A stretch of 64,000 nt of DNA from an uncultured Legionellales bacterium (lineage in GTDB: Bacteria > Pseudomonadota > Gammaproteobacteria > Eutrophobiales > Eutrophobiaceae), in assembly GCA_913046215.1 (NCBI GenBank), contig CAJWRJ010000002.1:5950-69949 (forward strand), given 5' to 3'. This document shows positions 56,483 through 57,909 of the stretch, piece after piece (the stretch's first letter is position 1; every line of letters starts with the position of its first letter). The notes under the pieces are model-generated. The model was not told the origin of the DNA. It ran no database searches and saw only the letters and a program-made list of their open reading frames with translations. Position numbers and translations under genes: made by a program.

Positions 56483-56558
56483 GCCGGAATAGCTCAGTTG
56501 GTAGAGCAACGCATTCGTAATGCGTAGGTCGGTGGTTCGAATCCACTTTCCGGCACCA
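56483..56558 (+). tRNA. thrW: tRNA-Thr (anticodon CGU)
   Basis: Folded by hand into a 76-nt cloverleaf (7-bp acceptor, 4-bp D, 5-bp anticodon, 5-bp T stems). Anticodon loop TTCGTAA, T-loop TTCGAAT, CCA encoded. Confidence 0.9.
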
Positions 56559-56582
56559 AATATGATTTAAAGAGCGAATAAA

Positions 56583-57854
56583 GTGAAAAAAATATATTCA
56601 CATAAAATATTTTTGCTATCACTGCTATTATATTTTACTACTGCATATAGTGAAATTTATAAGTCTGTCGATGAAGATGGCAATATTATTTTTACCGATA
56701 AGAAACCATTAACCTACTCTGAGGAGATCGAACTCGAAGAAGATCAAACAATTGAAAGTAATAAATCGTTAAACCCATCTGAAATAAATCATAACCAAGA
56801 GAAAAATGAAAATCCTGGTTTGGATATAGATATTTCATTACTCAATCATTATAAAAAGATGAGACCATCACTAAATAAAGATGATTGGCATATACACGAC
56901 CCATCACGTGTAATCATGACTTCTTCAGGACAATTAATTTCTGTTACTGGGAAGGCACAGGAAGATGGTTACAATTGTGGCCTTGAAACTTGGTATAGAG
57001 CTAGCCCTAAAGATAATTGGGAACCCCGTGAATGTTTGTTTATTGATAAACCCGACTGGATTTCTAAATTTGTACCGACAAATGATGGAGCTTTTTGGGC
57101 GCCTGAATTCATAGATAATGAAAGAATATTATATAGTGTTGCATCAAATTTTGATGATGGTGGTCCTTCTTGCACAGCGCTAGCTATTGCTGAGAAAGAG
57201 GAAGGAAAAATAATTTGGAAAGATAGCGGTATACCACTTACCTGTACTACAGGCACCCCAACAAAAACCAAAAATGGTGAAATCGAAGTGGAAGCAATTG
57301 ACCCCGCTTTTATTTTTTCACCAAACGGAAGAGCATACTTAATAACGGGAGGAGGGTTAATTCACGGTACAGAAGTTAATCCAGAAAATTTTCAACCATT
57401 ATCAGGAAATTGGTTTTCATTAGATGATTCAAGTTGGAAAACCTTAGCTAGGGGCCCGATGAGTAAAGAAGATGAGGAGGGGATTGGTGATGGTCATGAG
57501 TGGGTGGAAGCTCCTTACGTTTATTACCGTGAAGGCTTCTATTACTTATTTGTCAATTGGGGATCATGTTGTCGGGGAGCCGATTCTGATTACAATATAA
57601 GAGTTGGGCGTTCTAAAAATCCAATAGGTCCTTTTTTAGACAAAAAAGGAATTGATATGGTTGATGGAGGAGGTTCTTTAGTTCTCGAATCGAAAGGAAC
57701 TAAACGTGGACCTGGGCATGCTGGGATATGGAAAAATGAAAAGGCACAAGATATTTTAAGCTTTCATTACTACGATGCAAAACGTGATGGAATTCCCTTA
57801 TACGGTGAACGAAAAATAGTTTGGAAAAATAATTGGCCAACAATAATGAATTAA
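56583..57854 (+). CDS. secreted glycoside hydrolase family 43-like five-bladed beta-propeller protein
   Basis: GTG start. Signal peptide. Putative catalytic base region WHIHDPSRVI and acid region EAPYVYYREGFYYLFVNW, resembling the GH43 HDPS.../EGP..YYL.. pattern. Sits between tRNA-Thr and its 3' direct repeat. Confidence 0.5.
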   Translation: MKKIYSHKIFLLSLLLYFTTAYSEIYKSVDEDGNIIFTDKKPLTYSEEIELEEDQTIESNKSLNPSEINHNQEKNENPGLDIDISLLNHYKKMRPSLNKDDWHIHDPSRVIMTSSGQLISVTGKAQEDGYNCGLETWYRASPKDNWEPRECLFIDKPDWISKFVPTNDGAFWAPEFIDNERILYSVASNFDDGGPSCTALAIAEKEEGKIIWKDSGIPLTCTTGTPTKTKNGEIEVEAIDPAFIFSPNGRAYLITGGGLIHGTEVNPENFQPLSGNWFSLDDSSWKTLARGPMSKEDEEGIGDGHEWVEAPYVYYREGFYYLFVNWGSCCRGADSDYNIRVGRSKNPIGPFLDKKGIDMVDGGGSLVLESKGTKRGPGHAGIWKNEKAQDILSFHYYDAKRDGIPLYGERKIVWKNNWPTIMN

Positions 57855-57865
57855 ACTTTACCATT

Positions 57866-57909
57866 CGTAATGCGTAGATCGGTGGTTCGAATCCACTTTC
57901 CGGCAAATT
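57866..57909 (+). repeat. 44-bp direct repeat of the 3' half of tRNA-Thr (att-like integration scar)
   Basis: CATTCGTAATGCGTAGaTCGGTGGTTCGAATCCACTTTCCGGCA matches tRNA positions 30-73 with one mismatch. Confidence 0.8.

Follow-up and report, generated by a model that had tools for sequence, protein, structure and literature searches.

The tRNA-Thr(CGU) gene near the end of the 64,000-nt stretch of marine gammaproteobacterial DNA analysed here (the window) is followed, beyond a single glycoside hydrolase family 43 (GH43) gene, by a 44-nt copy of its own 3' part. We interpret the two copies, with good confidence, as attL and attR of a tyrosine-integrase system that uses this tRNA gene, the gene as a strain-variable hot spot, and the GH43 unit as its likely fixed remnant. 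The reading builds on the att structure itself, on an unoccupied allele in the same species, on a cognate integrase beside the same core, on arrays of units parted by partial tRNAs, and on content that varies between strains. The features at the tRNA gene are as follows.

56483-56558, plus strand: intact tRNA-Thr(CGU) gene (ARAGORN and Rfam, 75 bits), read as attL
56512-56555, plus strand: att core copy 1, 44 nt, tRNA positions 30-73
56559-56582, plus strand: 24-nt spacer from CCA to the GTG start, with none of the arm motifs seen after CCA in integrase-bearing elements
56583-57854, plus strand: GH43 (endo-arabinanase-like) gene, GTG start, 423 aa (Pfam PF04616, E 4.8e-22)
57849-57861, plus strand: 13 nt (AATTAAACTTTAC) identical to the 13 nt that end the conserved P arm, overlapping the GH43 stop codon
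57862-57905, plus strand: att core copy 2, 43/44 identical to copy 1, read as attR
57906-57933, plus strand: native 3' flank of the tRNA gene, about 28 nt (AATTCTAAACTAAGCTTTGTAACATTTT), homologous to the flank in unoccupied alleles
57932-58135, minus strand: bfd, encoding a BFD-like [2Fe-2S] protein (Pfam), the first gene past the att array
58333-58797: bfr, which comes after bfd

A first-pass annotation of this DNA had placed a tRNA-Thr(CGU) at 56483, and both ARAGORN and Rfam agree, each calling one tRNA there. Its 44-bp repeat with 43/44 identity also stands, except that the second copy, given as 57866-57909, truly lies 4 nt further left. The lone mismatch is at tRNA position 46 (G46A, with A in copy 2). 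After copy 1 the sequence goes on with CCA, after copy 2 with AAT; the repeat thus stops where the CCA begins, as the annotation had seen. None of 100 dinucleotide-preserving shuffles of the window held even one match to the 44-mer with up to three mismatches, and the repeat is in exact register, far past chance. The 5' part of the tRNA gene is read as chromosomal, its positions 30-73 and encoded CCA as being in an element-derived configuration, and copy 2 as the displaced original 3' part of the gene. The flank behind copy 2 is homologous to that of unoccupied alleles up to the point where bfd starts, and window positions 57862-57933 are 91.7% identical to L117:4199-4270 (comparison contigs are cited by L numbers). 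Because the order tRNA, GH43, fragment recurs in at least eight independent assemblies (L018, L019, L022-L025, L129, L143, L147), an assembly artefact of this window is excluded. L019 belongs to assembly GCA_902534455.1 and the conspecific L111 to GCA_002719415.1; L018 and L144 come from TARA samples.

Unoccupied attB sites are present in the same species. The 45-kb contig L144 is 99.5% identical to window positions 48760-54710 and 99.7% identical to 55247-56555, and at its junction tRNA positions 1-73 run directly into native flank (AAT cct...), with no CCA and no GH43. The same junction occurs in L123 and in L117, where it is seen before the contig ends (99.4% identity upstream); all three have AAT where the window has CCA after tRNA position 73. 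The search for an empty tRNA site in related genomes, which the first-pass annotation had proposed, was thereby answered. Past a flank of about 28-70 nt, the unoccupied alleles diverge from the window and lead to a downstream gene other than bfd, so that adding GH43 to L144 would not by itself yield the window. Bfd is probably a 63-aa protein starting at the ATG at 58123, as it is called in L018-L027; its 67-aa open reading frame lacks an exact database record because the true start gives 63 aa. A search with Bfr found a single close species representative, L028 ('Legionellales bacterium SP289'), and what it shares with the window is limited to bfd-bfr (86% nucleotide identity), in another context and with no tRNA. 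A 10-nt match to the core in L028 sits in the folP stop region and is due to chance. The open reading frames in window positions 1-48000 read as core metabolism.

The cognate integrase was found beside the same core. In L127, the intact tRNA-Thr and its CCA are followed by genes for a tyrosine recombinase of 343 aa (PF00589, E 1e-34) and for an HTH_17 excisionase-like protein. Integrases 99% identical to that of L127 stand after a tRNA fragment in L135 and L136, and in L108, which is 99.6% identical to the window upstream, the tRNA and CCA are followed by the 3' end of the integrase gene. The annotation's suggestion that the 44-bp core be sought next to integrases was therefore borne out in four contigs. 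Among phage integrases, those of Aaphi23 and Burkholderia phages come closest, at about 46% identity; no structural genes of a phage turned up, and a scan of IMG/VR for the att core returned no contig with a match. At the right end of the elements, the core is preceded by a P arm of about 190 nt that is conserved in seven contigs and contains GTGACGTAAATGTGTC and three copies of AGACTG; GTGACGTAAATGTGTC recurs after the CCA. Decay of the integrase is visible as an 18-aa remnant in L119 and a 22-nt remnant in L124. Among the contigs compared, none carried a complete element from integrase through to P arm.

The window keeps 13 nt of the P arm, and its 24-nt spacer holds no arm motif; a resemblance of the spacer to the integrase-side arm, judged by eye, was unconvincing. 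Positions 57849-57905 align with L023:1853-1909 and L119:167-223, and the same 13-mer precedes the core in L130. The first 7 of the 13 nt (AATTAAA) also lie 3' of GH43 in orthologues that have no att site at all, so the arm remnant is weak evidence by itself.

What lies beside the tRNA differs from strain to strain. In more than 10 independent junctions with differing left flanks, the fragment always starts at tRNA position 30 or 31. The L023 array reads fragment, DUF805/pilin unit, P arm, fragment, GH43, fragment, bfd; L020 and L021 have a TerB/Hsp70/GrpE-like unit, P arm, fragment and bfd, with no GH43. Arrays of units parted by partial tRNAs are found in L023, L136 and L119, and the window type, L020/L021, L023, L108 and L144 carry differing units between flanking genes that are identical or 99% identical. 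Two hybrid tRNAs (L148, L152) combine the same 5' part with foreign 3' halves, and in L130 an inverted tRNA 5' half is joined at the anticodon loop, which together would place the exchange in the anticodon stem-loop region. Where the first-pass annotation had held out a deeply conserved, invariant locus as the observation that would speak against it, content at the tRNA varies, and its attL/attR reading is upheld by the unoccupied site, the integrase at the core and this variation.

The comparison draws mostly on short metagenome contigs, of which at least one (L114) is chimeric. Its order of tRNA, GH43 and SCFA transporter was considered as a deletion progenitor of the window; partway through GH43, the contig's match shifts from window-type (100%) to L001-type (96-100%), which marks it as an assembly chimera or a recombinant, and it was discarded. 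Little weight was given to L022 and L025, with DUF805 directly 5' of the tRNA and identities of 72% upstream and 99.96% downstream, since they may be chimeras joined at the 86-nt shared tRNA stretch. A tRNA terminator hairpin in the native flank that decays at attR was also rejected, only L130 folding well (-9.2 kcal/mol).

The locus is larger than the first-pass annotation described, being a multi-unit hot spot with a third, inverted att remnant upstream of the tRNA gene, where the following features lie.

54711-55246, no strand assigned: strain-variable segment with the inverted att remnant and the NT5C gene, skipped by the L144 alignment
54721-54739, minus strand: third att core, inverted and partial, 19 nt, tRNA-Thr positions 30-48 (blastn-short 19/19)
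54740-54772, minus strand: P-arm remnant, 33 nt, matching the sequence before the core at element right ends in other strains
54799-55257, plus strand: NT5C-family 5'-nucleotidase gene (Pfam NT5C, E 4e-19)
55254-56375, plus strand: gene for a 373-aa secreted protein with no Pfam family, a chromosomal gene upstream of the tRNA

The 19-nt partial core spans the anticodon stem-loop and variable loop and is identical in L112 and L113. Together with the arm remnant (54721-54772), it is the 100% reverse complement of L023:1833-1884 and L015:4-55. The segment 54711-55246 is absent from the conspecific contigs L144, L146 and L150, which have 42 nt in its place. At the position of the 373-aa gene, L120 and L130 encode different mature proteins behind the same signal peptide, and a search of genome contigs with the 373-aa protein found no relatives.

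The interval between the att copies is filled by one open reading frame, at 56583-57854, and the first-pass call of a single GTG-start, GH43-like gene there agrees with Pfam (PF04616, 79 bits against a cut-off of 32). Its orthologues have ATG at the position of the window's GTG. The protein has a signal peptide and an N-terminal DUF4124 domain (Pfam), and solved arabinanases in the PDB match it at E 1e-30. Its NAIDP (ending at residue 147) and IEAPF align with the arabinanase motifs EAIDP and VEAPY, which we take to hold the catalytic Asp and Glu of those enzymes, and an HDP motif lies upstream. By these sequence features, the protein belongs to family 43 and is arabinanase-like. The gene is intact, and a dN/dS of 0.12-0.22, and of about 0.13 even between the two tRNA-linked copies, indicates purifying selection.

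By composition and divergence, the gene does not look like foreign DNA. Its GC content (36.3%) and GC3 (24.3%) fall inside the local range, so the composition check that the annotation had proposed for foreign cargo gave no such signal. Orthologues in sister species are 82-86% identical at the amino acid level, with dS of 0.32-0.65, and neighbouring genes diverge equally; these orthologues stand in ordinary chromosomal contexts elsewhere, without att sites. That annotation's decayed island with a cargo gene accordingly holds for the att scar, and a cargo origin of GH43 is just one of two live histories. Its statement that no integrase is present was confirmed between the copies and, by tblastn with the cognate integrase, across the whole 64-kb window. 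GH43 is probably transcribed from the tRNA promoter, which we infer because the spacer is just 24 nt long and has no promoter-like site. A promoter and terminator scan of 56300-58350 gave counts equal to shuffle expectation, with no site between tRNA and GH43; as the sequence upstream of the tRNA showed no sigma-70-like site either, co-transcription is an inference only.

In the scheme that we favor, the elements bring a copy of tRNA positions 30-73 plus CCA, set between the roughly 190-nt arm with its repeated motifs and the 3' end of the integrase gene. A crossover, probably within the anticodon stem-loop region, joins the element to the chromosome in such a way that the element's copy completes an intact tRNA and the gene's own 3' part and native flank come to lie downstream. 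Successive insertions, deletions and inversions have turned the tRNA into a strain-variable hot spot, that is, an additive genomic island, and the unit beside the tRNA in the window would have been whittled down by deletion inside a larger element to a single functional GH43 gene. Since it has no integrase, and just 24 nt precede the gene and 13 nt of arm follow it, the GH43 unit is most likely a fixed remnant that is mobile no longer. Trimming the GH43 flanks to 24 nt and 13 nt needs two neat deletions, which counts against the deletion step.

A different history, which we regard as possible but unlikely, is that GH43 is a native chromosomal gene, never element cargo, that recombination through an integrase or through microhomology placed between real att sites, by way of att fragments or pseudo-sites dispersed around the tRNA, so that the unit is a rearrangement product. 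It would account for a divergence and composition that match those of neighbouring genes, and for the fact that the orthologues adjoin genes for GT9, DUF6165, DUF6607 and an alpha/beta hydrolase, the same set lying 2.5-6 kb downstream in the window; elements circulating mostly inside one clade would, however, yield the same divergence pattern. The native 3' flank of GH43, AATTAAA(A/T)TTT(T)AT, resembles the arm-core junction (AATTAAACTTTAC followed by C), yet this pseudo-site is a mere 13-15-nt resemblance in AT-rich DNA, and the left junction (CCA and about 4-7 nt, then native GH43 leader) needs a second event. Inversions at the core are documented (L130; window 54721-54772), and in other genomes att fragments directly adjoin core-like genes (DEAD-box helicase, DUF6165-GT9, TPP enzyme/GDH), but no intermediate arrangement was found among the contigs compared.

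It is improbable that the units are cassettes mobilised in trans, with the integrase of another element excising integrase-less units as circles and re-inserting them at the tRNA, much as integron cassettes or cis-mobilisable elements move. Several small integrase-less units with unrelated cargo do have the full P arm and the core in common (L020/L021, L023, L136), and GH43 is found behind either the intact tRNA or a fragment. However, tyrosine integrases of this type normally require arm sites for excision, and the GH43 unit has 13 nt of the roughly 190-nt P arm and arm motifs on neither side; the L023 pilin unit likewise has no arm motif on its left. Strains that are near-identical on the bfd side differ in whether they have the GH43 unit (L023 versus L020), a pattern that arrival order and homologous recombination between strains fit equally well. 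The expected circular junction (GH43 end, core, CCA, spacer) was not found among the contigs compared, and the sequence before the core in L015 is the P arm of another unit rather than the 3' end of GH43. We give as small a chance to the broader idea of an integron-like platform at tRNA-Thr, on which arm-plus-core units are shuffled in trans by the integrase of a minority of cells; were it true, clade-native genes (GH43, pilin, NT5C) would be exchanged within the population without a complete mobile element. That no mobile element was involved, copy 2 instead reflecting a local duplication that left a truncated tRNA pseudogene, mere chance or misassembly, is scarcely credible: its sole support is the absence of an integrase in the window, and against it stand the shuffles, the shared structure of the independent assemblies, a fragment boundary that is identical despite unrelated flanks, the integrase at the same core and the unoccupied allele.

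Integration at tRNA genes through tyrosine integrases is familiar from P4- and P22-type prophages and genomic islands, including those at thrW in E. coli and Salmonella. As in those systems, the att core is the 3' part of the tRNA, from anticodon stem to discriminator; the intact tRNA is rebuilt at attL, with the displaced 3' fragment at attR; and in L127 the integrase gene adjoins the 3' end of the tRNA, is encoded on the other strand and has an excisionase-like gene next to it. Unlike them, the window unit sits in an AT-rich uncultured marine gammaproteobacterium, has lost its integrase and both arms, and holds one gene, which looks native. The isoacceptor targeted, tRNA-Thr(CGU), is that of thrW elements; the host not being an enterobacterium, thrW, which the first-pass annotation had cited as precedent, serves only as an analogy. 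Integrons combine an IntI integrase, an attI site and cassettes bounded by attC. The small promoter-less units in arrays, with a recombination site between them and beside a fixed attachment point, are reminiscent of such cassettes, but no IntI-type integrase or other tyrosine recombinase is found in the window, no attC hairpin sites were noticed, the repeated site is a tRNA fragment, and the units vary in size and orientation. Cis-mobilisable elements (CIMEs) are att-flanked DNA without recombination genes whose att sites still work and which a related element can move; the GH43 segment resembles them in lying between attL and attR and encoding no integrase, and differs in having lost nearly all arm sequence.

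A similar layout is known from the tycheposons and tRNA-anchored genomic islands of Prochlorococcus, partial-tRNA-flanked elements that sit at tRNA genes as side-by-side units and as degenerate remnants with fragmented integrases and stray partial tRNAs; inversions are associated with them, and nutrient-acquisition and defence genes are among what they carry (Hackl et al., bioRxiv 10.1101/2020.12.28.424599). Both have a streamlined marine host, partial-tRNA repeats, arrays of units (here L023, L136, L119), remnants and inversions. The host phylum differs, as does the site: the seven tycheposon tRNA sites given include tRNA-Thr(GGU) and not tRNA-Thr(CGU) (bioRxiv 10.1101/2020.12.28.424599). Only small open reading frames of unknown function, and no primase or helicase, were seen beside the integrase, on contigs of at most 2.7 kb that are too short to judge. 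In additive flexible genomic islands, such as that at tRNA-Lys in 'Ca. Methylopumilus', 20-nt repeats of the tRNA 3' end recur (PMC10872708). There too, strain-variable units pile up beside a tRNA within one species, punctuated by 3'-end repeats; in the present locus the repeat is 44 nt, and a cognate integrase and arm sequences are identified. The locus is a tRNA-anchored additive island of a known kind, similar to tycheposon islands, and reveals no new mechanism.

An unoccupied allele, a cognate integrase and several alternative occupants together document the tRNA-Thr(CGU) gene as a hot spot of gene exchange in a marine gammaproteobacterium that is abundant, uncultured and AT-rich. The hot spot explains why metagenome contigs of this organism break at the tRNA, and it marks out as flexible the genes for GH43, NT5C and the secreted proteins nearby. 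The att core, arm motifs and integrase are now defined for experimental testing, and the pattern known from Prochlorococcus and the Methylophilaceae is extended to another streamlined ocean lineage.

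The window, whose G+C content is 33%, carries a single tRNA gene, tRNA-Thr(CGU), part of which recurs nearby as copies or remnants of a 44-nt core (tRNA positions 30-73). One of these remnants also retains sequence of the P arm, a stretch of ~190 nt that precedes the core at the right end of elements. The features of the locus are:

54721-54772, inverted: third att remnant, between the stop of the PNPOx-like gene and the start of NT5C; matches exactly, in reverse complement, 33 nt of P arm and then core nt 1-19
56483-56558, plus strand: tRNA-Thr(CGU), the only tRNA gene in the window (ARAGORN; Rfam 75 bits)
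56512-56555, plus strand: core copy 1, tRNA positions 30-73
56583-57854, plus strand: GH43 ORF with a GTG start, the only ORF between the core copies
57849-57861: P-arm remnant, 13 nt (AATTAAACTTTAC), identical to the P-arm end
57862-57905, plus strand: core copy 2, 43/44 identical to copy 1

A repeat finder and a pattern search agree on the repeat and its identity, as described in the first-pass annotation, whose coordinates for the second copy (57866-57909) are shifted 4 nt to the right and whose other details of the observation are accurate. The sole mismatch is a G to A change at tRNA position 46, and the copies diverge, as also described, where the CCA end begins, copy 1 being followed by CCA and copy 2 by AAT. 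Shuffled versions of the window gave no match of this quality.

The window is most closely related to marine metagenome contigs, from TARA and elsewhere, that carry the label Gammaproteobacteria, and the nearest species-level genome record is the MAG 'Legionellales bacterium SP289'. Genes for GDH, a TPP enzyme, a PNPOx-like protein, an NT5C nucleotidase and a 373-aa secreted protein without known family lie 5' of the tRNA; bfd (minus strand), bfr, manC, DUF6165, a GT9 glycosyltransferase, DUF6607 and an alpha/beta hydrolase lie 3' of the tRNA unit. Directly 5' of the tRNA, an identical signal peptide (MKNILYTIILSF...; window 55254-55320) leads three unrelated mature proteins, namely the 373-aa protein, a DUF4124+Sel1 protein (relative's contig L120, from 155) and a 231-aa ORF (L130); the secreted protein seems to have been swapped behind a conserved leader. 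Elsewhere, translations inspected by eye make ~17.6-34.3 kb resemble a hopanoid/isoprenoid cluster, with candidate squalene-hopene-cyclase-like (22399-24342), squalene/phytoene-synthase-like, radical-SAM and RND-like transporter ORFs.

Conspecific contigs were found by exact-protein look-up with Bfr, the PNPOx-like protein and the 373-aa protein, and those retrieved match one or the other side of the window at 99-100% identity. Mapping every core copy in them yielded six configurations, in which a fragment is a core copy away from an intact tRNA:

Configuration 1, window type: tRNA, CCA, GH43, fragment, bfd (L018, L019 = GCA_902534455.1, L022, L025, L143, L147; cut contigs L026, L027, L129)
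Configuration 2, unoccupied site: L144, with the same junction in L117 and L123
Configuration 3, other occupant: tRNA and CCA, then the 3' end of an integrase gene (L108, 99.6% identical upstream)
Configuration 4, without GH43: TerB-, Hsp70- and GrpE-like genes, conserved non-coding stretch, fragment, bfd (L020, L021)
Configuration 5, array: fragment, DUF805/104-aa/pilin unit, the stretch conserved in configuration 4, then a fragment with CCA, GH43, another fragment and bfd (L023)
Configuration 6: a different left flank joined to fragment-CCA-GH43 (L024)

The empty site that the first-pass annotation had proposed looking for thus exists, and the content next to the tRNA is variable among relatives. 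In L144, a 45-kb contig matching window 48760-54710 at 99.5% and 55247-56555 at 99.7% identity, tRNA positions 1-73 run at once into 'AAT ccttttt caagcgtag...', with the encoded CCA and GH43 both absent; upstream identity of L117 to the window is 99.4%. Because ~28 nt of this unoccupied-site flank adjoin copy 2 before bfd (57862-57933 versus L117, 91.7% identity), copy 2 is the displaced original tRNA 3' end with its native trailer. L015 shares the left junction of the array, and its GH43 is 95% identical. Beside bfd in configuration 4 (L020:670-4397; L021) stands a unit of three genes, whose products are a protein with a TerB domain, an atypical Hsp70-like protein of 495 aa and a GrpE-like protein; the unit may act in stress response or against phages.

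This evidence comes from short metagenome contigs, and most of those from the look-ups stop at the tRNA or just past the PNPOx-like gene because strain heterogeneity breaks short-read assemblies. Chimerism is unlikely at the array junctions, since the longest run common to attR-type and tRNA-type cores is 27 nt. L114 was rejected as evidence: at L114:5297, in mid-GH43, 100% window-type sequence turns into 96-100% L001-type, either an assembly chimera or a natural recombinant of two co-occurring populations. In L022 (1-1268) and L025, identity to the window is 99.96% from 10 nt 5' of the tRNA onward and 72% before it, and their DUF805 ORF extends 10 nt into the tRNA; this may reflect recombination with its breakpoint at TTCAGACATT, or chimeric joining across the tRNA that both sequences share.

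Scanning the core against JGI metagenome contigs returned 17 contigs, and in this check, which the first-pass annotation had proposed, a cognate integrase was found beside the core. In L127, an intact tRNA-Thr with CCA is followed ~20 nt later by an opposite-strand 343-aa ORF encoding a tyrosine recombinase (PF00589, E 1e-34; HDLRHTWA and KRYAH motifs visible) and then by an HTH_17 excisionase-like ORF; in L135 and L136, a 99%-identical integrase follows a tRNA fragment rather than an intact tRNA. The last 15-18 integrase codons adjoin the core in L108, L118, L133 and L119, the last of which keeps this remnant alone, followed by a DNA methylase and a probable restriction gene. The integrase is ~46% identical to those of temperate phages, e.g. 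Aaphi23, and integrases at 58% identity occupy the equivalent position beside tRNA-Met(CAT) (L137-L142). By tblastn, the 64-kb window holds no homologue, in keeping with the earlier statement that an integrase is absent; the core had no match in IMG/VR contigs, and no complete element was recovered among the relatives' contigs. The observed repeat is confirmed, and its attL/attR interpretation is supported and extended by the unoccupied site, the variable occupants and the integrase at the same core in relatives. The repeat very probably represents attL and attR of a tRNA-Thr-specific tyrosine integrase.

Whatever the cargo, ~190 nt 5' of the core align as conserved in seven contigs and carry GTGACGTAAATGTGTC and three AGACTG copies; GTGACGTAAATGTGTC is also present 3' of CCA, inside the integrase 3' end. 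From these sequences we infer P and P' arms, on either side of the core, with predicted arm-type binding sites. Every junction has a fragment starting at tRNA position 30 or 31. L148 (1840-1908) and L152 (1338-1413), in contigs elsewhere 98-99.5% identical to the window, carry the 5' part of its tRNA-Thr (positions 1-49) with differing T arms and acceptor 3' strands, and appear to be hybrid tRNAs from elements with heterologous tRNA-Thr copies that recombined upstream of position 49. In L130 (reverse-oriented), ~70-110 nt past the fragment, inverted tRNA-Thr positions 2-29, adjoining PNPOx(-)/TPP(-)/GDH(-), are joined within the anticodon loop to loop sequence of plus orientation; an integrase-mediated inversion between inverted cores, which would have split the tRNA gene, seems to have produced this arrangement. 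Together, the fragment starts, the hybrids and the inversion place strand exchange in the anticodon stem-loop, reportedly the common arrangement for such integrases in the Williams 2002 classification. In L118 (reverse-oriented), an inverted tRNA-Met-like 3' fragment (ending ...CCCATAGCCACCA) lies directly 5' of the tRNA-Thr fragment; given the 58%-identical integrases beside tRNA-Met(CAT), remnants of two att systems meet there.

Segment 54711-55246, comprising the third att remnant and NT5C, is missing in L144, L146 and L150, where 42 unrelated nt are found. The window therefore holds two strain-variable units around the tRNA, and the hot spot extends from ~54.7 to 57.9 kb. Farther downstream, an exact 17-18-nt match to an element arm motif (ACGTAAATGTGTCGTAAT) at 61679-61695, the GT9 stop/DUF6607 start junction, may be due to chance (blast E ~6e-4 to 0.01) or left over from rearrangement; in L134 an att fragment stands immediately before the DUF6165-GT9 block, and in L001 the order of the block's genes differs.

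The single GH43-like gene reported between the repeats encodes an N terminus resembling a signal peptide, together with DUF4124 and GH43 (Pfam E 4.8e-22) domains, and matches solved endo-arabinanases (E 1e-30) with EAIDP and VEAPY motifs aligned. It is full length, retains its catalytic motifs and shows dN/dS of 0.12-0.22 (window versus L015, 0.13); by these usual criteria it is predicted to be functional. Its start codon lies 24 nt from CCA and its stop codon 7 nt from copy 2. As this 24-nt spacer has no promoter-like site (the scan itself being uninformative), expression from the tRNA promoter would be plausible.

The first-pass annotation saw in the GH43 unit a decayed island or scar; the att origin of the repeats holds. 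The gene is not foreign in composition, its GC (36.3%) and GC3 (24.3%) falling among those of its neighbours (29-43% and 20-35%). We lean towards an immobilised remnant reduced by deletion: the unit has neither integrase nor arm motifs, and its left spacer is the 24 nt. With the arms gone, a still-mobile cassette is improbable. At the right junction, 7 of the 13 P-arm remnant nt, stop codon included, also occur 3' of GH43 in orthologues without any att site, so this junction looks like short-repeat deletion or look-alike-site recombination.

Capture of a native gene by rearrangement is a possible, more tentative reading. In sister lineages, orthologues 70-86% identical are found in three or more further chromosomal contexts: behind the alpha/beta hydrolase (L016), between GT9 and a downstream SCFA transporter (L001-L008, L017), and between pyrimidine-synthesis genes and pilT-type ATPases (L009, L014). 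No tRNA or tRNA fragment is near them in these contexts, and homology to the window gene stops at the start codon and ~10 nt past the stop. In favour of capture, GH43 has diverged from L001 and L016 (aa 82-86%, dS 0.65 and 0.32) to the degree seen for GT9, DUF6607, photolyase and the hydrolase; GH43 therefore evolved along with the clade. Either it came as cargo of a clade-circulating element or it was rearranged into the array.

Prochlorococcus islands and tycheposons show side-by-side elements split by partial tRNAs, fragmented integrases, stray partial tRNAs and inversions (bioRxiv 10.1101/2020.12.28.424599), and the same four traits are seen here. Likewise, tRNA 3'-end repeats mark the units here as they mark the additive flexible islands of Methylophilaceae (PMC10872708). 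The likeness to tycheposons lies in the locus pattern; membership of that family is at most tentative, since these contigs, which are too short to judge by, show no replication module. The tRNA-Thr locus is not an integron; it is a further example of an already known kind of island, one built additively by successive integrations, deletions and inversions.
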